64,000 nucleotides of DNA from a virus (lineage: Duplodnaviria; Caudoviricetes): IMG/VR virus record IMGVR_UViG_3300048575_000392, positions 1 to 64,000 of that record; one strand, 5' to 3'. Each line of letters opens with the position of its first letter. Positions within the stretch are counted from its first letter, which is position 1. This document shows positions 23,401-42,254 of this stretch, one piece after another. Under the pieces are notes generated by a model. That model was not told the origin of the DNA. It made no database searches and was given only the letters and a program-made list of their open reading frames with translations. The position numbers were made by a program, and so were the translations under genes.

Positions 23401-23595
23401 CTACAGCTTGTCCACCGCGGGGCTTGTCACCACGTTCGTGGCGTCGGCAGCGGTATGGGTTCCGGTCCCCATCGCGCAGTGCGCGTTGTGGTCCGTCTTC
23501 AGCTCGTTGACGAGGGTTATCGTCGCGTCCAGCCTCGTCGAGAGCGCTTTGAGAGCCGGGCAGGCCCGGCACATCTTGTCCTTCAGTTCGGGCAT
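23401..23595 (-). CDS. Small head protein (possible decoration/cement)
   Basis: 64-aa ORF with RBS directly after the MCP. Confidence 0.55.
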   Translation of the reverse strand: MPELKDKMCRACPALKALSTRLDATITLVNELKTDHNAHCAMGTGTHTAADATNVVTSPAVDKL

Positions 23596-23652
23596 CCTTC
23601 TTCTCCTTGCCTTGAGGGAAGCCCGGCCCGCCGAAGCGGACCGGGCCGTAGG

Positions 23653-25068
23653 TCAGTTGTAGAAGCCGTCGTTCGTGTAGCCGACGTTCTTCACGACGCC
23701 GTGGTACCACGGCACCTTCACATCCGGCGTGCCGAAGAGCACGAGGAGGAAGGGCGTGACCGCCGCGCGGGTCGGGTAGAGGTCGAACTTCATGAGCGGG
23801 AGGAACTGGTCGAACTGGACGCTCGGCTCCAGCGCGTCGTGGCTGAGGTACAGAATCTCGCCGGTACCCGGCAGGTCCTCGTTCTGGTCGAGCACGACAG
23901 TGGTCGCGGCGCCCGAGTCGCCGACGCGAACCATCTCCCGCACGTCGGTGCCGCTTCCGGCGTCCTTCTTCGAGCGGCAGATGATGTAGCCGGTTCCCTT
24001 CTTGGTACCGGGGGTGATCGTGATCTTCGCTTCCTTTCCGGCAGCGAGGGCGAGGGACGCGGCGGCCGCTCCCGCGGAGACGCCGTACTCGTTGATCGCG
24101 AAGACCTGGTAGTAGTAGGTCCCGGCCGACGTGGAGTCGAAGCCGCGGCCACCGCCGGCGGTGAGGTCCTGGGCCGCGAGGGCGAAGGTGGGGGCGTTGG
24201 GGCGCTTGGTGGCGTCGCCGGAGGCCGCGATCTTGCCCTTCACGTAGAACATCTTGTCGGGGCCCGCCTCCTTGCCGGCGATCTTGATGTCGCTGGAGAA
24301 GGTGGTCGGGTACTCCATCACGACCTGCGCGCCGCGGCGGTCGTCCGGGTTGAAGCGGAGCCTGTCCTTGGCGAGCTTCTGGAAGTCCTGGGCGATCATC
24401 GAGGGCATGAAGGCGTGGGAGAGGCTTCCTCCGTTCTCGAAGACCTGGCGGGAAATCTCCGTGATGGAGTCCTCGCCGGCGGCGTCGGACATCTTGGCGC
24501 CGCGGAGGTCCACGAGGTTGCGGCGACTCGCGTTCGCCTTGATCTGCTTGCTCACGGAGTCGAACTGGACGGGTACGACCGCGCTGTCGGCCTGGAACAG
24601 GCCGTACTCGCAGCCCTTGAGGACGGTGAGCGTGCCGGCGACCTTCTCGGAGGCCATGGCGTCCTCGAGGGTCTTGGCGACCTGCATCTGGAGCGTGACC
24701 TCGCGGTAGGTCTGCATGTACTTCATGGGCCGGGTCACGCGCTCGAGGGCCTGACTGGAGTCCCCGGCGTCGCCGCCCTCGCTCGTGAAGATGTTCATGA
24801 ACTCGCCGGCGTCGTTCCGGCGGGTGTACTCGTGGACGGTGGAGCCGACCTTGGGCTTCGAGAGGAGGTTCATGAGCTTGAAATCCTCCTGCTTGGCCGC
24901 GAGGGCGTTGACCATGGTCATCTCGATGTCCTGCGGAATGAGAGCGCGGCCGCCAGTCATGGCCGCAGAGTCGGTGCCGTATCCCGCGGAGAGCGCCTTC
25001 TGGAGCTCGCCCTCGGTGACGGAGCCGAACATGTACTCGCTGGCATTGGTGGGTTCGAGGAAGTTCAT
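23653..25068 (-). CDS. Major capsid protein (large-myovirus type with inserted Ig-like domain)
   Basis: LQKALSAGYGTD..GGRALIPQDIE N-terminus resembling processed SPO1/Twort-type capsid proteins; QFDQFLPLMK C-terminus. Confidence 0.93.
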   Translation of the reverse strand: MNFLEPTNASEYMFGSVTEGELQKALSAGYGTDSAAMTGGRALIPQDIEMTMVNALAAKQEDFKLMNLLSKPKVGSTVHEYTRRNDAGEFMNIFTSEGGDAGDSSQALERVTRPMKYMQTYREVTLQMQVAKTLEDAMASEKVAGTLTVLKGCEYGLFQADSAVVPVQFDSVSKQIKANASRRNLVDLRGAKMSDAAGEDSITEISRQVFENGGSLSHAFMPSMIAQDFQKLAKDRLRFNPDDRRGAQVVMEYPTTFSSDIKIAGKEAGPDKMFYVKGKIAASGDATKRPNAPTFALAAQDLTAGGGRGFDSTSAGTYYYQVFAINEYGVSAGAAAASLALAAGKEAKITITPGTKKGTGYIICRSKKDAGSGTDVREMVRVGDSGAATTVVLDQNEDLPGTGEILYLSHDALEPSVQFDQFLPLMKFDLYPTRAAVTPFLLVLFGTPDVKVPWYHGVVKNVGYTNDGFYN

Positions 25069-25083
25069 TTCGTTCTTCCCTCC

Positions 25084-26562
25084 TTACATGGACTTGATGA
25101 GACGGAGCGTGCCGTCGTTGAGGGGCATGCCCTTGTTGAGCCGCTCCTCGATGATGGCTGCGTCCTGCGCCGTCATCTTGCCGCTCTGGACGGCCTGCAT
25201 GGACTTCTGGATGATCTCCTGACGGGTCATCGAGGTCTGCTTGCCGTCGGAGCCCACGAAACTGCGCTCCTGCTTGTTGACGACCGCCTGGCGGGGGGCC
25301 GGGGCATCGGCGAGGCTCTTCACGAGCTTGCCGGTGTTGACGAGGGCGCCTCCCATGGACTTCTGAAAGGCGACCATATCGCCCACGGACTTCTCGAGGG
25401 CGGACATCCGCCTGGAGATGCCCTTCGTGAGGTTGTCGAGGTACGGCGTCACGTCGAGGAAGTCGGCGGACGACTCCCGCATCTCGTCGTACAGGGACTT
25501 CTGCATCCCCTTCTTGGGAGCCTTCGCGGGGGCCCTGGCAGGCTCCTCGTGGGTCTCCTCCTCGCCCTCGCCGTCGAGGTCGTCCTTGTCGTCGTTGGCT
25601 TCGACGGCCTCTTCCGGGGGAAGCTCGGGGAAGCCATTGTCGGTCTCCTCCTCGCCCTCGGCCTCAGCCTTGCCCTTCTTGGGCGGATTCTTCATGGACT
25701 TTTCGAGAGTCGCGATGGACTCGTCGAATGCCTTCTCGAGTTCGGGGTCTTTCATAAGAACCTCCTCCTTGAACTTGTCTTTCTTGGAAAGTACGTCGCT
25801 CAGAATTGCCTTCGCCTCTTCGGGCGAGCATCCACGGTTCTTCAAGAGCTGTTCGGCTTCGTCTTCATCGCTCACGTCTCCGTAGGCCATGGCCATGACA
25901 ACGGCGTAAACATCGGGCTTGCGCCGCTTGCCGCCGTCCAAGTCGGACGGGATCATGGCCCGGCCTCCGGTCATCGCGGAGGAATCGGTTCCGAATCCCG
26001 CCTGAAGGGATTTCACGAACGCGGCGCTCGAGAGCGCCACGGGTTCGAGCGTTTGGTTGACCGGCTTGAAGGTGATCGCGAGCTCGTCCCACAGGACCTT
26101 CACGACCTTCTCGATCGCCTGGCCGATGCGAGAATCCCAGCCCGAGACCACCTCGGGCCGCTTGCCACCTACGGAGGTCTTCAGCCTCGTCGAGCCGTCC
26201 TTGAGCTTTTTCACGATCTCGCGGGCGATCGAGTTCGACTTGTAGAGCTTCGCCTTGACGAAAGTCCGGTCGCCCTCCGACCACACGTCGATGGGCTCTC
26301 CGATGATGTACTTTTCCGGGGACCAGTTCGGGTCCTCAGGGTCGGGGCGGAGGTGGCGATGGTCATAGGAGATGACGCCGTTCGCGAGGAAGTATTCCTT
26401 CGAGCCGAGAAGTGCACGCTGAAGCACGACCTGACCGTCGAAGTCCAGGTTCTCGTTCGACGCTTCGGCTTCGATGATCCAGTTGCCGTGTTCGTCGGTT
26501 TCGATGGCCTTCGACAGACTCAGTTCGAGGTAGACACGCTCTCCGAGCTCGATGTCGTCCAT
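25084..26562 (-). CDS. Prohead protease-scaffold fusion
   Basis: IIEAEASNENLDFDGQ, ISYDH, YIIGEP, TSVGG, LAIT..PVN protease motifs, then an acidic coiled-coil scaffold with repeated hydrophobic-x-KS; ATG at 26562 has an RBS. Confidence 0.88.
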   Translation of the reverse strand: MDDIELGERVYLELSLSKAIETDEHGNWIIEAEASNENLDFDGQVVLQRALLGSKEYFLANGVISYDHRHLRPDPEDPNWSPEKYIIGEPIDVWSEGDRTFVKAKLYKSNSIAREIVKKLKDGSTRLKTSVGGKRPEVVSGWDSRIGQAIEKVVKVLWDELAITFKPVNQTLEPVALSSAAFVKSLQAGFGTDSSAMTGGRAMIPSDLDGGKRRKPDVYAVVMAMAYGDVSDEDEAEQLLKNRGCSPEEAKAILSDVLSKKDKFKEEVLMKDPELEKAFDESIATLEKSMKNPPKKGKAEAEGEEETDNGFPELPPEEAVEANDDKDDLDGEGEEETHEEPARAPAKAPKKGMQKSLYDEMRESSADFLDVTPYLDNLTKGISRRMSALEKSVGDMVAFQKSMGGALVNTGKLVKSLADAPAPRQAVVNKQERSFVGSDGKQTSMTRQEIIQKSMQAVQSGKMTAQDAAIIEERLNKGMPLNDGTLRLIKSM

Positions 26563-26580
26563 GCGTCTCCATGGCGCGGA

Positions 26581-26635
26581 AAAACAAAAAGGGCCGCACG
26601 CCCCGAAGGGTATGCGGCCCGAGTCTTTCGGCACC
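26581..26635 (-). terminator. Conserved leader plus intrinsic terminator, copy 2 (before the head/tail operon)
   Basis: 49 bp identical to copy 1; U-tract TTTTTGTTTT. Confidence 0.85.
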
Positions 26636-26648
26636 TACTACTGCTCTA

Positions 26649-26690
26649 AAATTACCGTATCAGAATGCTCCACGCAAGTGGGAAAGTCAA
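26649..26690 (-). promoter_or_regulatory. sigma70-like promoter(s) upstream of copy 2
   Basis: TTGACT-17-CATTCT and overlapping TTGCGT-17-TAATTT; AT-rich intergenic region. Confidence 0.55.
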
Positions 26691-30200: not shown

Positions 30201-32174
30201 CCCGAGGGCGTGCATCCTGACGATCGCGTCCTCGTTCGAGATATCCCCGAGGTTGACCTCCAGGCTTTCCGGGTCTTTCGAGCCCTTGAGCTCCACAACC
30301 ATAGCCGCGGAGGCTTCGAGGCTCCCAAGGGCCTGGCCGATGATGCGATTCGCCTCATCGAGGTAGGAAAGCCGTGACTCGTTGAGCTCGGCCGCGGCCG
30401 CGAGGTCGGCGGGGTTGGCCGCGATCTCTTCCTTGATCGATTCGGCTCGCGCGAGGAGGTCCTTTCCCCTCTCGATGGCCTCGGAGGCGATGGTCTCGTT
30501 GACGGCTTCGTGGTAGCGCGCCATGCCCTCCGCGAAGGTCTTGTAGTCCTCCGTGGACATCGATCGGCGAGCCATCATCGCTAGGAGCTTCGAACTCGCC
30601 CCGACCCCGAGAAGGTCGACAGCATCGCGGTCGAGGCCTTCCGTCTTCATGGCTGCCAGGGCGATAGAGTTGAAACCGGAGTAGTTGCCGTTGGCTATCC
30701 ACTTCTCGGCGCCGCCGGGGTTCTTCGCGATCGCGTCGAGAAGGGAGGAGTGAACGGTCGCCTGGCGCTCCGTCTTGATTCTCTCAGCCTCGCTCTCGAG
30801 GTCGGCGTCCAGGAGCTCGTGGAAGTCCAGCGTGACGCCCTTGCCGTAGGCGAGGTCCTCGACTGAATCGGCGGCTTCGTCGGCCGTCCCGTCGAGCTTG
30901 ATTTGGGTCCCGCCGTCCTTCTTCTTGTCGAGCTCGGCGAGCTTCTTCTTCATCTCCAGATAGTGCTTCAGGACCTCCGTCTTCTTGTCCACCTCGGCTA
31001 TTGGGGCGCGGGGCGTCTCCTCGCGCTCGTACATGTCGTTCTTGACGCCGTTGATCCGCCGGTTCGTCTCAATGCCGCGGGTGATCATGAAGGCCAGACT
31101 GGGGTTATCCTTTGCGATCTCGGCCATGCGCTCGGAGAACATCTCGTCCTTCTCCTGCTTCAAGGCCTCCTCGTCCAGACCGCCCTTCTTTTCGGCGCTC
31201 TCCCGGTATCCGGCCACGAAGCCCTTGCCGTGCCCGGAATTCTCCTTTTTGAGCACTTCCCCGGCGCCGGTGTCTCCGCCAAGGCCGGCCTCCACCTGCG
31301 CCCGCAGGTCCGCGTCGCCGATGAGCTCGCGCTGTATCTGCCTCACGGCATCCTTAGCTGAGGACATGAAGTTCGCCCTCTGGCTCTTGACGGCGCGCTC
31401 CTCGGCCTTCTTGTTGACTTCGAGCTCCTTCTCCAGCCGCTTCACGGCCACCTTGTCCCCGTCCTCCTCGGCCTGCGTCATCTCTTCGAGGAGGGCCTTC
31501 CGCGGCTGGGCGAAGTCTTCCTCGATCGGGGACGGGTCCCACCCCATGAGGTCGGCCATGTAGGAGGTGAAACCCTCTTCGGCCTCAGCTCGGGCCTTCT
31601 TTTCTTCCGCCACGGCCTGTTTTTGCAGATCCTTGGCTGCCTTCTTCTGGGACTTGTACTCCTTCCGCTCGTCGGCGCCCATGCGGGAGACTTCCTCTTG
31701 CTCTCGGAGCTTCTCCTCGAGCTGCTTCCGCTTCTTGTCTTCCTTCCGCTGCTCCATCGCCTGGGCGTACTCGTCCTTGCTCTTGATCTTGTTCAGCTTG
31801 AGCCCGTTGAGCTTGCCGCCGGCGCCGGCGATGACGTGGGCCGTCCCGCTGCCGGTATCCTGGATTAGGACCGGAGTCCCGTCTTCTGCCCCATTTGGAT
31901 GGACCGTGATCCACCGCGCACCCCGCGGAAGAGCCGCCTTCGCCTTCGGGGCGGCAGCCTGGCGCTCTCCTCCGGTTCCGGCGCCGATGGACTCGGCCTT
32001 CTGGAGGCGGATGTACTCCCGCGCCACGCGGAGCGACTTCTGCATGGTGAAATACTCGCGGATCGAGAGTTCGGTATACCCGTCGGGCTCTACGTCCAGG
32101 ACGCCGGACTTCCGAAGCTGTTCGAGCCCCTCGGGCCTGTATGCGTAGCTTTCGATTCTGTAGAACATGCTCAC
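27207..32174 (-). CDS. Giant (1655 aa) probable head-packaged protein with C-terminal SNF2/SF2 helicase-like domain
   Basis: FGTGKGKT, DEAH, TATPVKN, SDAGATGLNLQ, QREGRIDRMGQ; N-terminal WITVHPNG..PVLI..GAGGKLNG motif. Confidence 0.85.
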   Translation of the reverse strand: MSMFYRIESYAYRPEGLEQLRKSGVLDVEPDGYTELSIREYFTMQKSLRVAREYIRLQKAESIGAGTGGERQAAAPKAKAALPRGARWITVHPNGAEDGTPVLIQDTGSGTAHVIAGAGGKLNGLKLNKIKSKDEYAQAMEQRKEDKKRKQLEEKLREQEEVSRMGADERKEYKSQKKAAKDLQKQAVAEEKKARAEAEEGFTSYMADLMGWDPSPIEEDFAQPRKALLEEMTQAEEDGDKVAVKRLEKELEVNKKAEERAVKSQRANFMSSAKDAVRQIQRELIGDADLRAQVEAGLGGDTGAGEVLKKENSGHGKGFVAGYRESAEKKGGLDEEALKQEKDEMFSERMAEIAKDNPSLAFMITRGIETNRRINGVKNDMYEREETPRAPIAEVDKKTEVLKHYLEMKKKLAELDKKKDGGTQIKLDGTADEAADSVEDLAYGKGVTLDFHELLDADLESEAERIKTERQATVHSSLLDAIAKNPGGAEKWIANGNYSGFNSIALAAMKTEGLDRDAVDLLGVGASSKLLAMMARRSMSTEDYKTFAEGMARYHEAVNETIASEAIERGKDLLARAESIKEEIAANPADLAAAAELNESRLSYLDEANRIIGQALGSLEASAAMVVELKGSKDPESLEVNLGDISNEDAIVRMHALGLSKDDYAIDSVGGSKVVTIKTPDKLIHPVDAEELQIEEEVDAIKAGERDEENWLPAGLVRRDAESFDDPGPDTETPAGDVDNQSLGDDAEAIHKTEEAVHRTLGEMPEGAFAFKLLEDLTPQDQTDLRRYWERNIYKGSMAEATSGQNLATGKAASRQGAWAKFLKGENGGSEEAAFAAIRQDLIENHSTEDMFGEKDIPPLARVVPGNWATYRANVDGARELFDAIDDLRDPSMVTDAAAAEREVKKLEGELPGKLEELYQSQMKDHYLKWMSGHTEEEFNAGESRQEKSPWGEYARMHGDTDRAQAAIIDRIRGDFTERFIKNYGRVTGKKLATKVEKIRNAQDHVLGMLHKDVRDSYTDRFKREMGEAGGELANRANGRFASGSWKDKLGEYIEEKKRAEAAQGDMFGGDDLKQDDGTEILSIGRRAETQLASMIPDLSRNQLRGQRYAVSTMQAKGERQRAIKMFEATKRMNLTFGTGKGKTIISIGAFTELKSKGKAKRAIFAVPSVVLSQFGNEVNVFCEPGKYRVKSDPSLSRDDRIQAMKDGKLDMVVFTHQSLRDDMVHLMAKHNDKDPEAMKAHFNAQSPEERQRLLGEALKKEGIAFDMLTVDEAHYTTNRKGKEDTTLSNVIDALNQNVTYFMNQTATPVKNDISEAFDMLHKVAPDRFNDRNEFIKRYGVDSDFARRSLQRLISRYNYASPTVTGVKKVSKKEIVPLTGEQAAEYANVETMFQRASKAQRSGTVDVEAMRALSPSSFRNQPEAKHEEIARRLQESSGTIKEEALNRVVNQFDWKKNAKISRAVDIIEKKVYEEANPKTASQAGDRKPGVIFAHNIQTVENLRAALEAKGCRVGIIQGSMNGAEKEKVKVGFNPPNPKDRIYDIILCSDAGATGLNLQNAAYLMNFDLPQTSWVKQQREGRIDRMGQAHKEIEYHDIVSDTEHEKKKWERIQRKKAIGSIFEEDPGVLDDTGLAATIAAVRQDRYNQGIDKEKAA

Positions 32175-35100
32175 CTCACGATCAGCTTTTTGCCGTGATT
32201 CGCCTTCTTGAAGGCCTCTTCCTTGAACGCCTCGATGCTCGTCTCATCCATCCGGCCGAAGAATCCGGGCCGGTCATACTGTTTCAAGTAGGCCGCCTTG
32301 GCCTCCTCGGGGCCGTCGAAGCCGAACATGATCTTGTCCTCGTCGTAGTCCCCGGTCACCGGGTCGTTCTGATGGACCACGAAGACCTTCTCCGACTCGG
32401 TATCGGGGCCGATGTAGCAGTCGAGGTGGTCCTTATCCTTCCCGACGGTCCCTCGGATGTACCCGTAGTCGAAGTGCATCTTCGTTTCCCACTCGTGGCC
32501 GTCCTTGTCGACGCCGCGGCGGACGCTGCCCTTCCGGTTCTCGATGCTGATGTCCATGCCCTGGAGCGTCGTCCTGCCCTGGAGCTTATGCCCGCTCCAG
32601 GTCTCGGCCTTCTCTAGGCGGAGAGCCTTGAGGAGCTCGTCGTCCTCAACGAAGAAACGCTCGACGAGGGGGAGGACCTTCGCCTCGTAGACCTCCTGCT
32701 TGGGATGATTCCCGCGCTTGTTCCAGGTTTCCTGGTATTCGGCCTGGGCTTCGCGCTTCGTGGCGAAGAACTGCTCGAGCGCGCGGGCGAAGCACTCGCA
32801 GGTACGGTTCTGGTAATCCGAGGTCTGGGCCGTGGCCATGTTCGAGCGGAACGTCCGCGCGATCTGGCCGGGGAGCGAGGACCAATCGTCCGAGGCGTAA
32901 AAGTGGCGCCCTCCCCGCGTGCCGAGGTAGTTGTCCATGAAGTGCGCCCACTCGTGCGCGAGCGTGAACCCGAAGCCGGTTTCGCCGTTCTGCATGGTGA
33001 CGCCGATCGCATGATGGGCAGGAAAGTAGACGCCGGCCGCGTTCCGGGCGTGCATGAGCACCTTCCCGGAGTGGCTCACCTTGAGGCCGAAGCCTTTGGC
33101 CATGGAGGAGCGGTTCCCATAGATGCTGTATACCGCGTCCAGGGCGGTCTTGATGTCCTGGATCTCCTTCGTGTTGATCGCGTCGCCATTCTGGCGCTTC
33201 ACGAGCACGCCGTACTCGTCCAGGAGGTCCTTCCTCGTCCCCTTGTCGCCGTAGGCCGTCTCCTGCCCCTTGGCATAGGCGGAATAGTTCTCCTCGATCT
33301 GGATGTTCATGTCGGAGAGCTTCTGCTTCATGTCGACGACGGCCTCTCGGATAGGCTTCCACCTCGCCGAGCCCTGCACGTCGAGAAGGGCGGAGGCCAT
33401 GGAAAGCGTCGTCCTCATGGCCTTGTTCTCTCCGAGCATCCTCACGGAGGTCTTCTTGAGCCTCATGCCGGAATAGAGCTTCGCCTGCTTTTCGTCGTAC
33501 TCCTTCGCTCGGACCTTCGCCCGCTTCAGGTAGTAGTCCTGCATCGCAGCCAGGACATCGACCCCGACTCGGGCGTAAAGCACGCCCAAGGAAGCCTTCC
33601 CGTCGCCAAGGCGCACCATGTAGTCGCCGTCGCCGAGCTTCACGGCCTCGACGCGGTTCCCCGAGCTGTCGAAGTACCTGTCGTCGATTCGGGGTATCCA
33701 GCCAGGCGCGGGCTTCCCCAGAATATCCTTCTCGGAGGCGAGGCTGATCTTGACGGGGATCGCATCCCGGAAGTCGAGGTACTCCACCTTGTCGCCCTTC
33801 ACGCGCCGCGGCTCGAAGGTGTAGGGCTCCGGAGGCCGCTCCTCCAGCTTCGCGCCGAAGAGCTGGGCCTCGGTGGCGGCCCGCGTCTCGGGCGAGGCCT
33901 TGGCCATGAGGGCGGCCACTTTGTCGGGTTCCCTCTCAGGGATAATCTCCTTGATGTCCTCGGGCTTCACGGCGAGCATCTCCCTGTCCGCGAGGACGTG
34001 GGACACGCCGCCGGCGAAGTAGCTGATCTTCCCGATGGCCTTCTTACCGTTCTTCCCCTTGAACGACACCTTGGCGCCGTTCTTGAGCTGGGCGAGGAGC
34101 TTCTGGCGCCAGAGGGCCTCCTCGACCTCCGCCTCGGCGAACATGTCGAACTGCACCCCGAGGGGGGTGTCTTTCTTGGCCTCCGCGGGAAGGACCCACA
34201 CGGTCGTCTCGAAGCGCGTCCCGTCCCTCGTCACGAAGACCTTCTTCGGTACCAGCTTCGGGTTCCTGCGCGATTTCTCCAGCATGGGGATGATGAAAAG
34301 GGCCTTCCTGAGCGACTCCGACTCTTGCAAGTCGCTATTAGCGGCGGTATACTCTGAGGTGGAGGGTCTGGAAATGCCTAACATCGAATCCAAAGACATG
34401 GACTTCTTCGAGCGCGAGGACGTGCCCTTCGCCCGCGACAACGCCTCCCGGAAGTGCTTCCGCGTCTTCTCCGACAGCTCCTTGAAGGAATCCCCGATCA
34501 CCCTCGCCGACTTGATGGTGAACGGCCGCGCGATCTCGAAGGACGAGGCCCTGCGGTTGGCGAAAGCCTCCGGAGACTGACTCGCCGCCCACGCTTCCTG
34601 ATACAGCGCTATCTGTGCGCCCCCGACCAATCGAGTGATCTTGTCGTTCTTCGGCTCATCCTTCAGCTCCCGCCACACCTCATAGAACACGTGCCCTTCG
34701 CTCTTGGCCTCGGCCATCGCCTTCGTGGTGAGCTGGACCTCGGATATCATCCCATTCGGTAGCTTCACGTTCATGTTGATGTCACGGTACCCGACCGGCG
34801 AAGGCGTGGCGAAGTTGTTCTTCAGTCTCATCACCCGCGGGTCCGCCATGAAGAACTCCACGGCGGCCGCCATGGATTCCAGCCCGTCGAATATCAGGGT
34901 ATGGCCGTCGAAGTCGTAGACCTGGGAGGCGTCGGGGGCGCAGTCCTCGCGCATCTTCTCCTCAACGCGGCCGCGGTCCTTCAGCTTGTCCCGAGACTGC
35001 ACTTCGAGGGCCCCGAGCTTCTTCGCGGCCTCTTCGACGGAGGCCTTGAACCCCGCCCTGGCGTCCTCCGCGAGGCGGTAGAGCTCCTCGATATCCTTGG

Positions 35101-36016
35101 AGGGCTGCACGAGGTTCTTCTTGTCGATTCTCTTCTGGTAGTCCGGGTCGAGAAGATGCTCCACCTGTTCCGATGAATGCCGAGGGGAGGAGGCCTCTTC
35201 GCCCGCCGGCCGCCGCGGGGTGGCCTCCTCGTCTCCAGGGCGGACGTAGCGCATCTGCTTGACGATGGCCCCGTCCTTTCGATGCACGTCGACGGCCCGC
35301 CGGACCAAGCGGGAGAGGTCACGCGCTTTCGCGAGGATAGGAACCGCGAGGAGCGCCGACATCGCCTTCTTGAGTCCGAGCCTCTTCGCCGATTCGATGG
35401 CCGCCGGCTCGTCAACCAGGCCAGCCTCGATGAGCTTCTTGTAGTAGTCGGGATCTTCCTTGAGGTGGTCCTCGGCGATCTTGCGGGCCTCCGCGCGGCC
35501 TTCGTGGTGCTCCATCTCGACCTTGATACCCACAGCCAGCTCGGGGTTATGGGTTTCGGCTACACCGAGGAGCTCCTTTTCCGTCAAAAGGCCCGCCGAG
35601 GATACTGCCTTCCACACGGGGCTCGATTTCTGAATGACGAGCTTCTTCGCGACTTCCCTGCGCTCCGTCCTGGCCTGGGGCCGAACCTCGTCGAACTTGG
35701 AAATGATCGCGAGCTTCCCGTCCTTGAGCCCTACGCCGAGGACTACTCCGCGCTGCCAGTCGCCACCGGCCTCGAAGTAGGCGATGTCCTTCCCGTAGCG
35801 GATAAGCTCGCAGTTCTCGAGGTCGAGCCCCTGAGGGAATCCATCCAGGTCTTTCAGCTTGCTCTTGTTGCCGTAGATGTCGATCTTCCCATCTTCCCCC
35901 GCGAACAGCTTCATGAAGGCCGCGTAGAATCGGCTATCCAGTCCTCCCTCGGGGATCGATTTCGCTACGAGGCTCTCCTCGTTGTCGGTGTTCTTCCTGA
36001 TATACAATCCGGGCAT
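32171..36016 (-). CDS. Polyvalent protein: DUF5661-like + RelA/SpoT-like nucleotidyltransferase + KOW-like + zincin/LPD1-like + inorganic-pyrophosphatase-like domains
   Basis: EMEH..ARKIAEDHLKEDPDYYKKL; KDRGRVEEK/DFDG/GYRDIN/EVQLTT; AHEWAH and ECFARALEQ; ISIENRKGS..DYGYIRGT.GKDKDHLD..DEDK. Confidence 0.82.
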   Translation of the reverse strand: MPGLYIRKNTDNEESLVAKSIPEGGLDSRFYAAFMKLFAGEDGKIDIYGNKSKLKDLDGFPQGLDLENCELIRYGKDIAYFEAGGDWQRGVVLGVGLKDGKLAIISKFDEVRPQARTERREVAKKLVIQKSSPVWKAVSSAGLLTEKELLGVAETHNPELAVGIKVEMEHHEGRAEARKIAEDHLKEDPDYYKKLIEAGLVDEPAAIESAKRLGLKKAMSALLAVPILAKARDLSRLVRRAVDVHRKDGAIVKQMRYVRPGDEEATPRRPAGEEASSPRHSSEQVEHLLDPDYQKRIDKKNLVQPSKDIEELYRLAEDARAGFKASVEEAAKKLGALEVQSRDKLKDRGRVEEKMREDCAPDASQVYDFDGHTLIFDGLESMAAAVEFFMADPRVMRLKNNFATPSPVGYRDINMNVKLPNGMISEVQLTTKAMAEAKSEGHVFYEVWRELKDEPKNDKITRLVGGAQIALYQEAWAASQSPEAFANRRASSFEIARPFTIKSARVIGDSFKELSEKTRKHFREALSRAKGTSSRSKKSMSLDSMLGISRPSTSEYTAANSDLQESESLRKALFIIPMLEKSRRNPKLVPKKVFVTRDGTRFETTVWVLPAEAKKDTPLGVQFDMFAEAEVEEALWRQKLLAQLKNGAKVSFKGKNGKKAIGKISYFAGGVSHVLADREMLAVKPEDIKEIIPEREPDKVAALMAKASPETRAATEAQLFGAKLEERPPEPYTFEPRRVKGDKVEYLDFRDAIPVKISLASEKDILGKPAPGWIPRIDDRYFDSSGNRVEAVKLGDGDYMVRLGDGKASLGVLYARVGVDVLAAMQDYYLKRAKVRAKEYDEKQAKLYSGMRLKKTSVRMLGENKAMRTTLSMASALLDVQGSARWKPIREAVVDMKQKLSDMNIQIEENYSAYAKGQETAYGDKGTRKDLLDEYGVLVKRQNGDAINTKEIQDIKTALDAVYSIYGNRSSMAKGFGLKVSHSGKVLMHARNAAGVYFPAHHAIGVTMQNGETGFGFTLAHEWAHFMDNYLGTRGGRHFYASDDWSSLPGQIARTFRSNMATAQTSDYQNRTCECFARALEQFFATKREAQAEYQETWNKRGNHPKQEVYEAKVLPLVERFFVEDDELLKALRLEKAETWSGHKLQGRTTLQGMDISIENRKGSVRRGVDKDGHEWETKMHFDYGYIRGTVGKDKDHLDCYIGPDTESEKVFVVHQNDPVTGDYDEDKIMFGFDGPEEAKAAYLKQYDRPGFFGRMDETSIEAFKEEAFKKANHGKKLIVR
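34325..34353 (+). promoter_or_regulatory. Near-consensus sigma70 promoter antisense to the polyvalent gene
   Basis: TTGCAA (34325-30) - 17 nt - TATACT (34348-53); GGAGG at 34361-65, 8 nt before the ATG. Confidence 0.8.
34374..34580 (+). CDS. 68-aa gene nested antisense within the polyvalent gene; candidate immunity protein for the adjacent RelA/SpoT-like domain
   Basis: Promoter + RBS + ATG; normal acidic composition (MPNIESKDMDFFEREDVPFARD...KDEALRLAKASGD) while the host frame becomes Ser/Arg-rich over exactly this interval. Confidence 0.75.
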   Translation: MPNIESKDMDFFEREDVPFARDNASRKCFRVFSDSSLKESPITLADLMVNGRAISKDEALRLAKASGD

Positions 36017-36473: not shown

Positions 36474-39400
36474 TCAGCCCTCCTTTCTCATTATACCCAG
36501 TCGCGGACCATTCCGGTAGATCATGCGCATCGACTTCTCGACCTGCGGGCGCTTCCTGAACGCATAGCCCGCCCTTCCGCCGTAGGCGCGGTTGTACTCG
36601 ACCTCGTAGTCCGGGTTCATCTCGATGATGTCGTGGAGCTCATAGGCCGAGGCCCCGCGGACCCCGCGGCGCTTCATACGCTCCACGATGTCTTCCACGG
36701 GCTTCCAATAGGTCGAGGCCATGGAGTCGATATACTCGGCCTCCTTGTGGGCCCGGTAGGCCTTCATGGCCGGCTCCTTGAGCGCCTCGGCGATGCCTGT
36801 CTGCTCGAAGACCGGATCGTTGATCGCGCCGCCATCCGCCTCAGCCTCGCCCGAGCGCACGGCCGCGACGATCCGCGCCCGGTCCTCAGCGACATAGGGG
36901 TTGAGCGCCTCCTTGATGTCTTTCTCGGAGAAGGACCATCCCTTCGAGGCGATCTCAACCTTCCCCTCGGCGTTGACCTTGCAGTACCGGGTCTCCCGGT
37001 CGGGCGAGAGCCGGAGCATATCCCGATAGCGGTCCCGCTTGAAGGCTTCCGCCTGGCCGGCGAAGTCCGCCGGGGCATAGAGAGACTTGAGGCCGGACAG
37101 GTCTTCCTTTGTCGGGCTCGCTACGTGCGTCCAGTGCTCCCCGCCGCCCTGCTTCCACTCGACCCAATCGGAAGTCCACCCGCTCCCCTCCTGGGAAGCG
37201 GGCTTCAGGAGCATCGTCTGCTTCTTGTGGTTGATGGTCATGGCGACGAAGGGGCCGCTCCTCATCATGAACACGTCGCCCGGCTTGTAGACCCGACGCT
37301 CCGCCTTGTCGTAGATGAAGTCGGGCGGGTTGTCCTTGAGGAGCTCGAGATTCTGAAATTCCGGGTTGCCTCTGAGGGCCTCTTCCATGTTGTAGAGCTT
37401 CCGGAGGCGGTTCTGGTACTGGACGGTGCCCTTGTCCCCCTCGAAGCCGCGGATCGAGCCCCGCATGAGGCTGAGGGCCGCGAGCGTCTCGTGGACCTTC
37501 TGGGCGTTCGCCTCCTTGATCTTGCCGGTCTTGATCTTCTCCATCTCCGCGCGCCGCTCGTTGGCCTTCTCCTTGTCGCCCCACTCTTCGGTGAGGGCGA
37601 GGAGGAGCTCGTCGGGATCTACGAAGGAGTCGTCGTTCGGGTTGGTGAAGACGTTGGACTTGGTGCGGAGAAGCTGGTCGATCCAGTTCGCCTTGTTCTG
37701 TACGAGGTTGACGGAGTAATTGTCGATCGTCCCCGCGGTGAGGTAGGTGTTGAGCGCCACGGATGCCTGCCTGTTCCCCTGGCGGTCGATACGGCCGTTC
37801 CTCTGGATGAAGTCCGACGGGCGGTAGGGGATGTCGAAGTGGTGAAGGGCAGCGCTGTTGTCCTGGAGGTTCACACCCTCGCCGAGGGTCGGCGTCGTCC
37901 CTATGATTACCTTGTACTTCCCCGCGTTGAAGCCATCGATCGCCGCCGACACCTCCTTCTCGAGCGCCGTGTCGCTCTTCTTCCCGCCGGCCTTCGTGAT
38001 GCCGTTCACCACGACGATCTCGGAGTCCTTGAATCCCTGTGCGACGAGGGCGGCCTTGATCTTGTCGTGCATGTTGAAAGAGCCGTCGCCTGAGAGGACG
38101 CGGTCGCAGAATACGACCTGCCCGCCTCCCGTCGCCTTGAAGCTCTCCATGGCGTTCTCAGCGAGCTTCGACAGCTTCGGGTTCTTCCACCCAGCGTACT
38201 TCGAGGGGTTGTAGAGCTCGAGGTCGAGCGAGGCCGTCCGCATCCGCGAGTAGAAGGTGAGGAAGCTCTGGCCGGGGTACTTCTCGGCCTTTTCGTCGTT
38301 CCCCAGGGCCTTGAATTCCTCGAGCTGGGCCGAGAGATCGCGAAGCACGCCCGTCTGGTCTTCCTGCATGGGGATGACGTTCGGGTTGTTGTTGGCCTTC
38401 GGCTTCGGGAGGCCGATCTTCGTGGGATCGTTCTGGAGGTCGGTGTACTTGAAGAACATGTCCTGGAGGGTCCGCAGGTTCTTGAATCCCTTGAGTACCT
38501 TCGCGTCTATGGTCTTGCCCGTGCCCCAGTCGCACTTCGGCTGCACCTCTATATCGGCGAAATTCCGGATGAAGTCGTCGATCGTCCTTATGTTCAGGCG
38601 GTCGAGCTCCTCCGGCGCGACGTGCATGAGCATGTTGTAGTATTCGAGCGGGCTGTTCGTGAGCGGCGTGGCGGTGAGAAGGAAGACGTTCTTGCCGTCA
38701 TGCCCCCGCCGGATGAACTCGCTCTTCTTGAACAGGCTCATGGCGCGGTCCGAGCGCCGACCGTCGTTCATCCCCGTATCGCGGGAGAGGCTCGAGCTGA
38801 AGAGGTTCTTGTAGTTGTGGGCCTCGTCCACGAACAGGGCATCGCAACCGAAGTCCTCGAAGTTGATGGTCTGGTTCGTCTTCCCGGCTTCGAGCTTCCC
38901 GCGAGCCGTCTCCTTGGCCTGCTCGATCTTTCGGGAGCTCTTCGCGGCCGCCTTGTCCATGATCTGGCCGGCTACGATGTCGTCGGTGATGCGCTGGTCC
39001 TCCTCGGGCCTAAGCTGTATCTCGGAGGCCGCGGACTCGGGAAGGACGATCACGTCGAAGTCCCCGTTCGCGAGCTCCTGGTACATCTTGTAGCGCTTCA
39101 CCTGGTTCGAGTATCCCTCCGTCTCGGGGTCCACGGCGCCCACCTTGAGGCCGGGCATGGCCTTGGCGATCTCCTTGATCCAGTCCTTCACCTTGTTGTT
39201 CGGGACCTGGACCATGGGCCGCTTGATCTTCCCCTCCTGCCGGAGGAGCCCGATCAGGCCGATCGCGGCAAGGGTCTTCCCGAAGCCCGTCCCGAGCGCC
39301 GTGATGCCCTTCCCGGCCCGGTAGAGGTGGTGGATGGACTGCCATTGATGCCCGCCCAGGACGATCTTGGGGCTCCATCCGTCGATTCTCACGGCGTAGG

Positions 39401-42254
39401 TCTTCGTCGGAGCCCCGATCTCCGCGTTGAACTTCCGGTTGTAGAGCTCTTCGAGCTGCTTCCGGACCTCGGGGTTGTTCGACACCCAGTTCTTGAAGTT
39501 GTCCTCGGCGTTCCGGTTGAAGGTCTCGGTGTCGATCCGGCTCGAGCGCTGCTTCTGCATGTTGAGGAAGTAGACGAGCTCGTGGTTGTAGTCCTGCCAG
39601 TCCCCGGCCGCGATGGTATGCCCCGCCTCGCGCCAGTTCTTTCCTCGGACGTACTTGTCCTCGTCGTAGACGACGCCCCACTTCCCCTCCTCATTCCTCG
39701 CGAGGTGGAACTCACCGAAGGCGTACCCGAAGTCCATGCCGTTGCCGTCGCGGGCCCACTGGTCGATGAGCTCCTCAGGAATCCACGAGGACTGGGGCGT
39801 GAACTCCGCTTCCTCGATCGGGACCCATCCGACAGCCTTCTCCAGCTCGTCCACGCCATGCTGCCACTTCTCCCGCGCGGCCGCGAACTTCTCGCCGGGG
39901 TGCTTATCTATCGCCTTGCGGAGGGCGTCAACCTTGTCCCAGGCGTTCCCCGCGATGAAGTCTTCCCGAAGCTGCCAGGCCCCCTCGGGCGTCAGAAAGG
40001 CATCGGCGCACTCCTGAAGGGAGGCCTTGAGCCCCTCGAAGTCATTCGGGAAGTAGGCGCGGAGCTGCTTCGGCGTGGCCTCGATCATGTTCCTCTGGAG
40101 GGTGAGGAGGGCCGTGACCGCCGGATTGTGCCCGTCGACGATCTCGATCTCCTTCGCATAGACGTTCTGCTTCGTGAGGAGGTCGTCGTCTATACCCACG
40201 AGGCCCTCGTAAACGCCCGCCAGAGCCGCATTGGCGTTGAGGACCTTCCGGATATCCTTGTCTTCCCGCGGCGCCACGCCATAGGCCTCCTCGTAGGCCT
40301 GGAGGAGGCGCCGGGCCTCTCTCTGGAGATCGTCGACGGGTTCGTCGGCCCTCATGGCGTCCCGGATGCCTTTGACGGCCTCGGCTATCGCCTTGACGCG
40401 CTCGAGCTTCTCGGCCGCCACCTCGTCGGCGCCCTTCACGCGCTCCCATCGATGGTTCGCGTTCAGGCGGTAGACCCGGCCGTCCTCGCTCTTCGTCGCC
40501 CCCACGGTCAGGGTCTTGGCCGCGACGGCCTCCGCCTCTCCCTCCGTGAGCGCGAGCTCGTCGCCTTTCTTCTTTGGCGCCGCCGCGCCGCCCTTCGTCA
40601 TGGAGCGCAGCCTGTCGAGGTCCTCCACCGTCATGTCCGCCTCGGGCTCGAAGCGGGACGCGGCCGCGTCCATGTCGGCGAGCGAGAGCTCCCCCTCTAC
40701 CACGTCCCGGCCCCAGTTTCCGGCGCCCTCCGCGAGTGCGCCAAGGATGTGCTCGGGCTTCACTTTGTAGTAGGAGCCCTCGACCCATGCCTCATTCCAG
40801 AACCCGGCGGCCTTGAGACCTTTCTCGTCGAGCTGGGCGAGGCGCTGGCGCGTCTCCTCGGGGTACTTCCGGAAAAAGATGATATCCGGCTGTACGCCGG
40901 TCTGCGTATGCTTGAAGGAGCCGTTCGGGAGCCTCGCGGCGCCCATGAACTGCCCCTTCTTGAGCATCTCGGCCCGCCAGTCCCGGTTCCCCTTGCCATC
41001 CATCACGCCGGGATGGACGATCAGCGCCATGGACCCGCCGTCGGCAAGTGCGTCCAGGGAGCGGGAGAGGAAGTAGCGGTCGAGACTCTTCTCCTCGGGC
41101 ATGTCCATGAAGGAGGTGAGGACCGACCGATCGCCGAACGGGGCATTCCCGACCACGCGCGAGAACTGGCGCTCGTTGTAGAGGTTGAACTGCTCGAAGC
41201 TCCCGGAATGGATCGCTGCGCCCTCCTGGAGGATCGAGGCGGCCGCGGCCGTCCTCTTGTCGAGCTCCACGCCGTGAAGATCCAGCCCTTCCGGGGCGAC
41301 CTCGAAGAAAACGCCTGTCCCGCACGAGGGTTCAAGGACCGACTCGCCGGCCGCGATCGGGGCTATCTTGTCGAGCATCTTCCACGTCATCTTCGCCACT
41401 GGAGGGGAGGTGAAGAAGTCGTAGAGGACTCCGCGCTCGTCGTCCGCCTTCACGCCGCCGAAGCCCGAGTACCTCCGGACCTTCTCGACATCCTCGGCCG
41501 AAAGCTCATCGCGCGGCTTAAGGAGGAGCTCGGCGACCTCCTGATTGAGCTTCGCCCTCGCCGCGGGGTTTAGGTGCTTTCCCTTATTTCCCCATGATCC
41601 GTAGTCCCTGAACGGGGTCTCCTTGATGGAGAGCGACAGGTCACGCCGCTTCGTGTCCTCCGGGGAGGCTTCCTTTTCAGCCTTCTTGCGCTCCACGAGG
41701 TCCCCGAGCTTCCGCGCGAGGGAGTCAACGCGGGCCTGCTTCTTATCCCCCGCGGCTTTCCGCTCCTTCAGCTTCGTCTCGCCAGCGGTCCCCGTGATGG
41801 CGTAGAAGGTCGCCCGTCCGTTGTTCCAGGCGAAGGCCTCGCCGGCGGCTACCTTGGCCTCCATGTAGCGCTTGGCCGCCGGCCCGCTTGTCTCGAAGCA
41901 CTTCGTCACATCGGCCGAACTGAGTACGAGGTCCCCGTGGTCCTTCTTCCACTCCTGGAACTTGCCGTCCAGCTTGGAGCTCGCCGCCTTGACTGCCGGC
42001 GTCGGAGTCTTGGGCTTCTCGATGCCGAGCTTCGGCTCCTCCGCCGCGGGGGCGCCGCCATCGAAGAGGTCGAACTGGGCCGCCCGAGGCTTCTCCGCCT
42101 TGGCCTCGCTGGGGAGGACCCATACGCGCTTTCGGTAGGTGGTCCCGTCCTTGTTCGTGAGCGTGATGTCTCTCTGTACGAGGCGGGCGCTTCTCCTCGC
42201 CTTCTCGAGCGCGTCCTGCGCCGGTATCAGGATGAATCGCTGAAAAATGTTCAT
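36474..42254 (-). CDS. DarB-like N6-methyltransferase + SNF2 helicase, probably head-packaged
   Basis: FFTSP, LEPSCGTG, GVELD, GNAPF; LGTGFGKT, VDEAHNYKN, LTATPLTN, GEGVNLQ, QRNGRIDRQGN; real start at 42254 (ATGA overlap with MuF). Confidence 0.88.
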   Translation of the reverse strand: MNIFQRFILIPAQDALEKARRSARLVQRDITLTNKDGTTYRKRVWVLPSEAKAEKPRAAQFDLFDGGAPAAEEPKLGIEKPKTPTPAVKAASSKLDGKFQEWKKDHGDLVLSSADVTKCFETSGPAAKRYMEAKVAAGEAFAWNNGRATFYAITGTAGETKLKERKAAGDKKQARVDSLARKLGDLVERKKAEKEASPEDTKRRDLSLSIKETPFRDYGSWGNKGKHLNPAARAKLNQEVAELLLKPRDELSAEDVEKVRRYSGFGGVKADDERGVLYDFFTSPPVAKMTWKMLDKIAPIAAGESVLEPSCGTGVFFEVAPEGLDLHGVELDKRTAAAASILQEGAAIHSGSFEQFNLYNERQFSRVVGNAPFGDRSVLTSFMDMPEEKSLDRYFLSRSLDALADGGSMALIVHPGVMDGKGNRDWRAEMLKKGQFMGAARLPNGSFKHTQTGVQPDIIFFRKYPEETRQRLAQLDEKGLKAAGFWNEAWVEGSYYKVKPEHILGALAEGAGNWGRDVVEGELSLADMDAAASRFEPEADMTVEDLDRLRSMTKGGAAAPKKKGDELALTEGEAEAVAAKTLTVGATKSEDGRVYRLNANHRWERVKGADEVAAEKLERVKAIAEAVKGIRDAMRADEPVDDLQREARRLLQAYEEAYGVAPREDKDIRKVLNANAALAGVYEGLVGIDDDLLTKQNVYAKEIEIVDGHNPAVTALLTLQRNMIEATPKQLRAYFPNDFEGLKASLQECADAFLTPEGAWQLREDFIAGNAWDKVDALRKAIDKHPGEKFAAAREKWQHGVDELEKAVGWVPIEEAEFTPQSSWIPEELIDQWARDGNGMDFGYAFGEFHLARNEEGKWGVVYDEDKYVRGKNWREAGHTIAAGDWQDYNHELVYFLNMQKQRSSRIDTETFNRNAEDNFKNWVSNNPEVRKQLEELYNRKFNAEIGAPTKTYAVRIDGWSPKIVLGGHQWQSIHHLYRAGKGITALGTGFGKTLAAIGLIGLLRQEGKIKRPMVQVPNNKVKDWIKEIAKAMPGLKVGAVDPETEGYSNQVKRYKMYQELANGDFDVIVLPESAASEIQLRPEEDQRITDDIVAGQIMDKAAAKSSRKIEQAKETARGKLEAGKTNQTINFEDFGCDALFVDEAHNYKNLFSSSLSRDTGMNDGRRSDRAMSLFKKSEFIRRGHDGKNVFLLTATPLTNSPLEYYNMLMHVAPEELDRLNIRTIDDFIRNFADIEVQPKCDWGTGKTIDAKVLKGFKNLRTLQDMFFKYTDLQNDPTKIGLPKPKANNNPNVIPMQEDQTGVLRDLSAQLEEFKALGNDEKAEKYPGQSFLTFYSRMRTASLDLELYNPSKYAGWKNPKLSKLAENAMESFKATGGGQVVFCDRVLSGDGSFNMHDKIKAALVAQGFKDSEIVVVNGITKAGGKKSDTALEKEVSAAIDGFNAGKYKVIIGTTPTLGEGVNLQDNSAALHHFDIPYRPSDFIQRNGRIDRQGNRQASVALNTYLTAGTIDNYSVNLVQNKANWIDQLLRTKSNVFTNPNDDSFVDPDELLLALTEEWGDKEKANERRAEMEKIKTGKIKEANAQKVHETLAALSLMRGSIRGFEGDKGTVQYQNRLRKLYNMEEALRGNPEFQNLELLKDNPPDFIYDKAERRVYKPGDVFMMRSGPFVAMTINHKKQTMLLKPASQEGSGWTSDWVEWKQGGGEHWTHVASPTKEDLSGLKSLYAPADFAGQAEAFKRDRYRDMLRLSPDRETRYCKVNAEGKVEIASKGWSFSEKDIKEALNPYVAEDRARIVAAVRSGEAEADGGAINDPVFEQTGIAEALKEPAMKAYRAHKEAEYIDSMASTYWKPVEDIVERMKRRGVRGASAYELHDIIEMNPDYEVEYNRAYGGRAGYAFRKRPQVEKSMRMIYRNGPRLGIMRKEG

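Follow-up and report, generated by a model that had tools for sequence, protein, structure and literature searches.

A plus-strand open reading frame nested antisense in a phage polyvalent protein gene is a candidate Tis1-like immunity gene for the adjoining Tas1-like toxin domain

In the provirus considered here, an alarmone-synthetase domain of the toxic RelA/SpoT type is built into a polyvalent virion protein that has no annotated immunity gene, and the locus raises the question of where the antidote to this domain is encoded. The DNA analysed is a stretch of 64,000 nucleotides (nt), positions 1 to 64,000 of IMG/VR record IMGVR_UViG_3300048575_000392, and is called the window throughout. 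A first-pass annotation of the window had proposed that the toxin and its immunity gene form a pair in which the antidote is an open reading frame (ORF) on the opposite strand, embedded in the toxin's own reading frame. Our analysis favours this proposal, and we give a probability of about 0.65 to the reading that the plus-strand ORF at 34374-34580 is a nested, separately promoted Tis1-like immunity gene cognate to the adjoining Tas1-like toxin domain. It is supported by a protein family with free-standing members, by conserved expression signals, by a confidently predicted fold, and by structural and sequence matches to Tis1 and Tas1. The features concerned are as follows.

34325..34330, plus strand: -35 hexamer TTGCAA of the sigma-70-like promoter of the nested gene, read from sequence; loci L001, L002, L027, L028 and L019 have TTGCAT, TTGTCA or TTGACA in the same place
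34348..34353, plus strand: -10 hexamer TATACT, 17 nt from the -35 hexamer and identical in L001, L002, L027 and L028
34361..34365, plus strand: Shine-Dalgarno sequence GGAGG, 8 nt ahead of the ATG
34374..34580, plus strand: nested gene for the candidate Tis1-like immunity protein, from the ATG at 34374 to the TGA at 34578-34580; 68 codons, acidic product with pI 5.0
34373..34582, minus strand: Ser/Arg-rich basic stretch of the host frame (host residues 479-548), read through the nested gene
34583..35149, minus strand: Tas1-like RelA/SpoT domain of the toxic small alarmone synthetase (toxSAS) type, host residues 290-478, assigned by phmmer, Pfam, motifs and AlphaFold2 (AF2)
32171..36016, minus strand: host polyvalent virion-protein gene, 1281 amino acids (aa), with DUF5661, the Tas1-like domain, a zincin-like region and InPase (Pfam and PHROG matches)

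The promoter (TTGCAA-17-TATACT), the GGAGG, the ATG at 34374, the TGA that ends at 34580 and the 68-aa ORF between them are all present in the sequence as the first-pass annotation described them, and a transcription start would be expected near 34360, giving a leader of only about 13 nt. The ORF lies antisense within the minus-strand ORF 32171-36016, faces host residues 479-548 and stands directly behind the RelA/SpoT-like domain. The nested gene is thus within the toxin's own ORF, as had been claimed, but not within the coding sequence of the toxin domain itself; it is the Ser/Arg-rich stretch directly behind the domain that is read through it. Likewise, the 68-aa ORF is real, but the plus frame is already open from 34035 (181 aa), and the ATG is internal to this longer open stretch. 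The contrast drawn between a Ser/Arg-rich host frame and an acidic plus frame was borne out: Ser and Arg make up 31% of host residues 479-548 vs 12% of the remainder of the protein, the Ser+Arg maximum of the whole host protein falls within these residues, and their pI is 11, against 5.0 for the plus-strand product.

Taken by itself, the window shows no excess over chance for either the promoter match or the open frame, and significance is reached only via other loci. Promoter-like matches number 1 in 10 kb, vs 1.2 +/- 1.1 expected by chance. The window is 62% GC, and the frame used by the nested ORF is stop-poor in all host genes examined (about 3% stops per codon, with 70-80 open codons common); in this frame the third codon positions of both strands coincide. 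Long plus-strand open frames antisense to big minus-strand genes are also found at 32705-34357 (550 aa), 38622-41573 (983 aa) and 23455-26649 (1064 aa), and these are regarded as the common shadow ORFs of a genome with 62% GC. The nested ORF could in principle be one more shadow of a GC-rich gene, with no plus-strand coding meaning; the base composition, the plus frames of 550 and 983 aa elsewhere in the window, and an open length and single promoter match that do not exceed chance are what such an ORF would offer. The chance that this is the explanation is very nearly negligible, in view of the homologues of the small protein that exist outside polyvalent genes.

Two called genes came up when 5.8 billion proteins were searched with the 68-aa product: P0003 (68 aa, 87% identical to the nested product) and P0004 (71 aa, 55% identical, on 24 contigs), neither of which sits inside another gene. 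P0003 is located in a phage, between a small Sigma70_r4 gene and a Bro-N gene and adjoining HicAB, and P0004 is located in an operon of small genes, adjoining a repressor-like helix-turn-helix (HTH) gene, an integrase and SNF2/DUF1156 genes. When a profile of the family was run against 1.84 billion representatives, 13 proteins of 66-89 aa and one protein with tandem copies were recovered; other family members are carried by integrative elements by a type I restriction system, stand beside ParA, or are found on bacterial chromosomes. The pattern shared by the family is approximately FFE-x-ED-VPFA ... FRV-x-SD ... G-R-x-ISK-x-EAL-K/R-LA. DNA similarity between the window and the P0003 locus (L013) is confined to 34374-34583, that is, from the ATG to the stop, at 82% identity. 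The reverse frame of the free-standing copies is broken by five stops in P0004 (L003) and by one in P0005 (L025), and the plus frame is therefore the coding frame of the family. A shadow ORF does not explain free-standing homologues that have a broken reverse frame and lie in unrelated contexts (none of L003, L013, L025, L031 and L032 is a piece of a polyvalent gene called in error), nor DNA homology that is bounded by start and stop codons. Furthermore, a hidden Markov model (HMM) of the family matches the antisense ORF of a relative with 40% GC (L019) at E 1.2e-6, and AF2 predicts a well-defined fold for the 68-aa protein, as described below.

The family has no Pfam match, no PHROG match and no source name; no longer fused forms of the small protein were found, and a search among proteins of similar length gave no named proteins. 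The tandem-copy architecture is seen in P0015 (181 aa, from the representative library), which contains two copies of the small-protein domain. Long leucine-rich repeat (LRR) and NACHT proteins that appeared in the family HMM search were rejected as spurious. The family phylogeny lacks resolution and gives no number of transitions between the embedded and the free state.

Family members also occur antisense within homologues of the toxin region elsewhere, namely P0006 (L026/L027) and P0008 (L028). Six embedded loci were compared: the window, L001 and L002 (IMG/VR), L019 (metagenomes), L027 and L028. The GC content of their host genes ranges from 0.40 to 0.62 (40-58% in the five besides the window), and protein identity falls to about 30-35%. 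The first-pass annotation had suggested that a conserved antisense ORF and promoter be sought in homologous loci, and had named stops interrupting the ORF there as evidence against it. The ORF is present in the same place in all six of these diverged toxin loci, ending 2-13 codons past the C-terminal helix of the family, and its signals are kept with it. Across the six loci the -35 hexamer reads TTGCAA, TTGCAT, TTGCAT, TTGTCA, TTGCAT or TTGACA; the spacer between -35 and -10 is exactly 17 nt in every locus, while its sequence is not conserved; and the -10 hexamer is TATACT everywhere but in L019, which has TATGCT preceded by an upstream TG. GGAGG stands 6-8 nt before the start codon in 6/6 loci, the start being ATG in five and TTG in L019. 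A promoter scan independently found the L027 site (its only match, with 0.1 expected) and the L019 site. On this evidence the nested gene appears to have its own transcription and translation signals in all six loci.

The host residues encoded opposite these signals diverge among lineages at the conserved promoter, Shine-Dalgarno and start sites. Opposite the -10 hexamer, only E/K-Y is kept in the host frame, the Tyr codon being TAT and the preceding codon ending in G in all five lineages, which indicates that synonymous sites are fixed at the nucleotide level. The ORF lies wholly inside an opposite-strand ORF and both frames are open in relatives, as befits an antisense nested gene: the host-frame stretch 479-548 is open in all embedded loci with in-frame indels, and host-frame indels among relatives are all multiples of 3. 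The possibility that the minus strand of the window holds two separate genes here was considered and rejected, given that the host frame has no stop and that relatives with indels of 39, 18 and 198 nt stay in register.

Three of the related loci serve as natural experiments. At L002:3474-3860 (minus strand), the nested gene is once more a complete family member, of 73 aa, owing to an insertion of 198 nt that leaves the host frame in register. On the plus strand, the insertion is a divergent copy of the C-terminal two-thirds of the family, ending in EALRLA and a stop at the usual place; the resulting chimera joins the original first 19 codons to the divergent C-terminus, and the displaced old 3' part now contains a plus-frame stop. 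The sequence looks like an allele replacement by recombination inside the overlapping gene. At L027:255-345 (and in L026), the toxin ORF traverses the antisense gene as far as a TGA that falls within the nested -35 hexamer; this stop overlaps (ATGA) the start of the next minus-strand gene, and the polyvalent protein is split exactly here. The unit in L027 would thus appear to be the toxin domain plus the antisense cassette, with the polyvalent fusion downstream of it. Lastly, L029:475-1080 belongs to a prophage remnant, located at one end of a bacterial contig of 91 kb, that has lost the toxin core and retains a toxin tail interrupted by two stops; the small gene (P0007, 71 aa) is intact, a pattern that would be expected of an orphan immunity gene.

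Selection was assessed in two ways. For close relatives (the window, L001 and L013), changes were classed as synonymous or non-synonymous in each frame. Among 35 differences, 23 were synonymous in both frames, 4 in the plus frame only and 5 in the host frame only, and 3 were non-synonymous in both. Changes that are non-synonymous in both frames were thus observed at 3/35 vs 66% expected, which indicates strong purifying selection. For diverged pairs, the conservativeness of replacements was scored as BLOSUM62 per site, with the following results.

Embedded vs embedded, aligned on the plus frame: plus frame 1.98, reverse (host) frame 1.09
Embedded vs embedded, aligned on the host frame: plus frame 1.28, host frame 1.09
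Free vs free, aligned on the plus frame: plus frame 1.86, reverse frame 0.68
Free vs free, aligned on the host frame: plus frame 1.45, reverse frame 0.76

In the diverged pairs, replacements in the plus frame are more conservative than those in the host frame, as in free genes. The embedded copies therefore seem to behave like free genes; any further constraint on the host frame, apart from its staying open, is modest at most. Three segments that look conserved in the reverse frame, IARPF, LSEKTR and SKNS, are also present in free-standing copies, where they are untranslated, and reverse-frame conservation is on this account a by-product. The host frame nevertheless has some predicted structure: AF2 models the toxin domain with a predicted local distance difference test score (pLDDT) of 85-95, followed by helices with pLDDT 62-82 for about residues 479-530 (34425-34582, minus strand) and then disorder, and both strands of the nested stretch may encode structured polypeptide.

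These data bear on a further explanation, that the nested ORF, a captured immunity cassette, has fallen silent in this prophage and is intact only via the openness and constraint of the host frame. With third codon positions that coincide, conserving one protein largely forces conserving the other, and such wobble positions would let host-frame selection preserve the plus-strand protein; the antisense frame is stop-poor everywhere, the promoter match in the window is at chance level, and AF2 predicts host-frame helices, at pLDDT 62-82, over part of the interval. We consider this account highly unlikely, as the -10 hexamer, the 17-nt spacing, the Shine-Dalgarno sequence and the start codon are kept where host residues differ and with synonymous sites fixed, L002 regained an intact plus-strand ORF after an insertion, the plus-strand ORF outlives the toxin in L029, and replacements in the plus frame are the more conservative ones.

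The identity of the small protein was approached through its predicted fold. AF2, run on a 17-sequence alignment, gave the 68-aa protein a pLDDT of 94 and a predicted TM-score (pTM) of 0.82, and the fold runs from four short strands through a helix and a further strand to a helix at the C-terminus. A Foldseek search of the PDB returned nothing significant, its highest-probability row being 6ox6_B, and a Foldseek search of viral models returned unnamed proteins only, at E > 0.05. In VIA-align comparisons, 6ox6_B (Tis1) ranked first in the shortlist and did so again when 48,161 representative PDB chains were scanned exhaustively; the alignment has a Z of 5.3 and a root-mean-square deviation (rmsd) of 3.9 A, and covers 61/68 residues and nearly the whole 76-aa chain. 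When host residues 290-478 were searched against the PDB with phmmer, the best match was 6ox6_A (Tas1) at E 1e-6, followed by the small alarmone synthetase YwaC at 4e-3. The 6OX6 entry is the crystal of Tas1 (chain A), a (p)ppApp synthetase from a type VI secretion system (T6SS), with its immunity protein Tis1 (chain B). The top matches of two overlapping neighbour genes are thus both halves of one toxin-immunity crystal, and it is this coincidence that carries the Tis1 argument, since a Z of 5.3 alone is weak.

By sequence, the host domain belongs to the RelA/SpoT synthetase fold and is closest to Tas1. Pfam RelA_SpoT matches host residues 345-441 with 24.8 bits, under the 27-bit cut-off, the Tas1 alignment extends to about residue 458, and the toxin motifs GYRDINMN and E-x-Q are invariant in nine relatives. 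The nested ORF is tightly linked to this Tas1/FaRel-type domain, in six loci and beside the decayed toxin tail of L029. More distant Tas1-like genes, L020 and L021, end right after the domain and are followed on the same strand, with a 4-nt overlap, by ORFs of 75 and 72 aa (L020:632-859 and L021:2604-2822), which is the canonical immunity position; hhalign comparison of these downstream ORFs with the nested family was not significant. The window clade has no same-strand ORF in this position, and the nested gene would fill the functional slot of the missing same-strand immunity gene. Tis1-like domains are known inhibitors of toxSAS enzymes that make (pp)pApp, which they inhibit by occlusion of the acceptor site (PMC11782079).

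Several observations weigh against the assignment of the nested ORF as a Tis1-like immunity gene. The Z of 5.3 for Tis1 is below 8, and three unrelated chains score within 1 unit of it (5.1, 4.7 and 4.6), the runner-up at 5.1 being a 46-residue piece of an LRR protein. An hmmsearch of all PDB sequences with the 17-sequence profile, at E <= 10, did not recover 6ox6_B, so that sequence homology to Tis1 was not found. The toxin of the window clade lacks the Arg of the DxxGxR/DxxRxT motif (DFDGHT, and DVLGGS in L019), and the substrate or activity of the toxin domain in this clade may, from its sequence, differ from that of Tas1. The -35 hexamer of L001, L002 and L028 (TTGCAT) scores 3/6, which is below the threshold of the promoter scan. 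In the site-class comparison, the discordant classes stand at 4 vs 5, which is underpowered, and selection is assignable to neither frame in close relatives; more generally, the coinciding third positions make the conservation of one frame largely force that of the other. Finally, no recognisable toxin lies near the free-standing homologues within the flanks examined, which makes a toxin-independent function possible. As a side observation on the motif, DFDGHT lies at about 34898-34915 (minus strand, host residues ~368-373) and has Gly where distant relatives have Arg (D-x-x-R-x-T/S).

It is accordingly worth asking whether the nested gene is real and expressed but has another function, such as that of a small regulator, a superinfection-exclusion factor or an anti-defence factor, and is a moron lodged in a tolerant linker. 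Such a function would suit the free-standing homologues, whose examined flanks show no toxin and which have as neighbours repressor-like HTH genes, integrases, ParA and genes for restriction-modification or defence, and it would suit a Tis1 match of only Z 5.3 without sequence similarity; neither fused forms nor source names point to any function. We judge it unlikely, for the small gene stands at one and the same place, directly after the Tas1-like domain, in six loci that are unlike in their other modules, and survives beside the decayed toxin tail in L029, and a first rank for Tis1 among 48,161 chains, with Tas1 as the best match of the neighbouring domain, is improbable by chance. Orphan immunity genes on mobile elements, moreover, explain the free-standing copies equally well.

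If the nested ORF is a Tis1-like immunity gene, a plausible history can be proposed. The ancestral layout would have been convergent, with a toxin gene, an opposite-strand immunity gene under its own promoter, and then the next gene of the head module; loss of the toxin stop codon would have led to translation through the antisense of the immunity cassette, fusing the toxin to the downstream modules as a polyvalent protein, and L027 may be a retained intermediate state of this fusion. In the lysogen, the late minus-strand operon would be silent and the sigma-70-type promoter would make the 68-aa protein, which by analogy with Tis1 would bind the toxin domain at the pyrophosphate-acceptor site. 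The protein could thereby protect the lysogen from the toxin of superinfecting kin virions, and the producing cell during late expression, and the toxin would presumably leave its inhibitor behind on packaging and ejection. No terminator-like site was found on the plus strand from 34580 through 35554, in agreement with the first-pass annotation, and a layer of antisense-RNA protection is proposed, for which the missing terminator is the one argument.

A more far-reaching version of this scheme, which we hold to be rather unlikely as a whole, would place the 207 bp under protein-level selection on both strands. The host tail would then be helical, basic and functional, as a spacer, a cleavage segment or a contact for the immunity protein; the cassette would move between embedded and free-standing states; orphan copies would serve as immunity acquired against toxins that virions inject; and convergent transcription would further regulate the toxin at the RNA level.

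With respect to the genomic setting, the source record is an IMG/VR provirus of 76 kb. The zincin-like region of the host protein matches phrog_22901 and the InPase domain is C-terminal, and by these matches its domain make-up is that of a phage 'polyvalent protein' (PMC5512222). The gene belongs to a minus-strand head module that comprises a terminase, a portal, a MuF-like gene, a DarB-like methylase-helicase, the host polyvalent gene, an SNF2 giant protein and a capsid protein, the MuF-like gene lying 6 kb upstream of the host polyvalent gene. The first-pass annotation had described the genome as all-minus; this holds for 23-47 kb, the span that was checked, where every Pfam-supported gene is on the minus strand. 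Additional tblastn matches revealed that a motif, K-L-V-x-K-x-V-x-V-T-R-x-G-x-x-F/Y-x-x-x-x-W-V, is repeated where one module after another begins in the polyvalent protein and its relatives, for example at 34139-34312 of the window (minus strand) and at L028:3422-3526, 2369-2490 and 1355-1444; this module-start motif fits the repeated leader or targeting motif proposed at the first stage. Wastewater metagenome contigs from two studies, in runs labelled 'metagenomic RNA-Seq' but probably of DNA, are 93-95% identical to window positions 33000-36000, four such runs having been compared, and close relatives of the prophage thus occur in wastewater. No relative of the locus was found in the phage GenBank collection (blastn) or in GTDB genome contigs.

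Should the favoured reading be correct, the locus would be among the best-supported prokaryotic or viral cases of DNA that is protein-coding on both strands, by evolutionary evidence in the form of homologues, signals and a matching partner, and the presence of a lethal alarmone-synthetase domain in a polyvalent virion protein without an annotated immunity gene would be explained. Gene callers forbid nested antisense genes, so such antidotes would be systematically missed. The locus also suggests that polyvalent proteins can arise via read-through across a convergent cassette, and it defines an unannotated family of small proteins whose members may be orphan immunity genes on mobile elements.

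The components of the proposed system have precedents. Tas1-Tis1, Apk2-IapK and the toxSAS antitoxins are already known, as are antisense overlapping genes in E. coli and Pseudomonas (PMC5960689, PMC7103648, PMC8850804). In the papers searched, no description was found of an immunity gene nested antisense in the ORF of its toxin, which agrees with the first-pass annotation; the paper on polyvalent proteins (PMC5512222) does not contain the words 'antisense' or 'opposite strand'. The Tas1 (Apk1)-Tis1 pair of the Pseudomonas aeruginosa T6SS (6OX6) resembles the present one in that single-domain immunity proteins of about 70 aa are genetically tied to the toxin. It differs in that the toxin here is a module of a phage virion polyvalent protein and not a T6SS effector, and the candidate immunity gene lies antisense within the toxin ORF and not beside it; in addition, there is no detectable sequence similarity to Tis1, and the clade lacks the Arg of DxxRxT/DxxGxR. 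MuF-Apk2 of temperate phages, with iapK and aph1 (PMC12226406, PMC5576092), is likewise a (p)ppApp-synthetase-type toxin that is associated with the virion, encoded in the head module and countered by a small protein that inhibits by occlusion. In that system MuF carries the toxin as its C-terminal domain, and the immunity genes lie downstream on the same strand (IapK, PMC12226406), whereas the present toxin sits inside a polyvalent protein distinct from MuF and has its candidate immunity gene nested on the antisense strand. In the FaRel and AT2faRel toxSAS modules (PMC11782079, PMC7229694), a small, structured Tis1-like domain also neutralises a RelA/SpoT-type toxin that produces (pp)pApp; those modules are bicistronic or tricistronic same-strand operons of bacterial chromosomes, the antitoxin is often multidomain, and none is nested.

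The antisense overlapping genes of E. coli O157 (ano, pop and others) and olg1/olg2 of P. aeruginosa (PMC5960689, PMC7103648, PMC8850804, PMC7457138) are comparable in being fully embedded antisense ORFs that standard annotation skips. They are mostly young, lineage-restricted, of unassigned function and supported by expression data; the nested gene described here is known from sequence and, unlike them, has free-standing family members, conservation across very diverged hosts and a specific partner adjoining it. By analogy of arrangement, the nearest known layout is that of the pore-forming colicin operons (PMC4436062), in which an immunity gene transcribed from a promoter of its own lies, on the opposite strand, between the colicin and lysis genes. 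In both cases the immunity gene is convergent and separately promoted, constitutively so in the colicins, and the toxin strand can be expressed only by reading through its antisense. The colicin toxin and immunity families have no relation to those of the present locus, and the colicin immunity gene is intergenic, whereas here the toxin ORF is translated through the candidate immunity gene, and the same DNA would be protein-coding on both strands.

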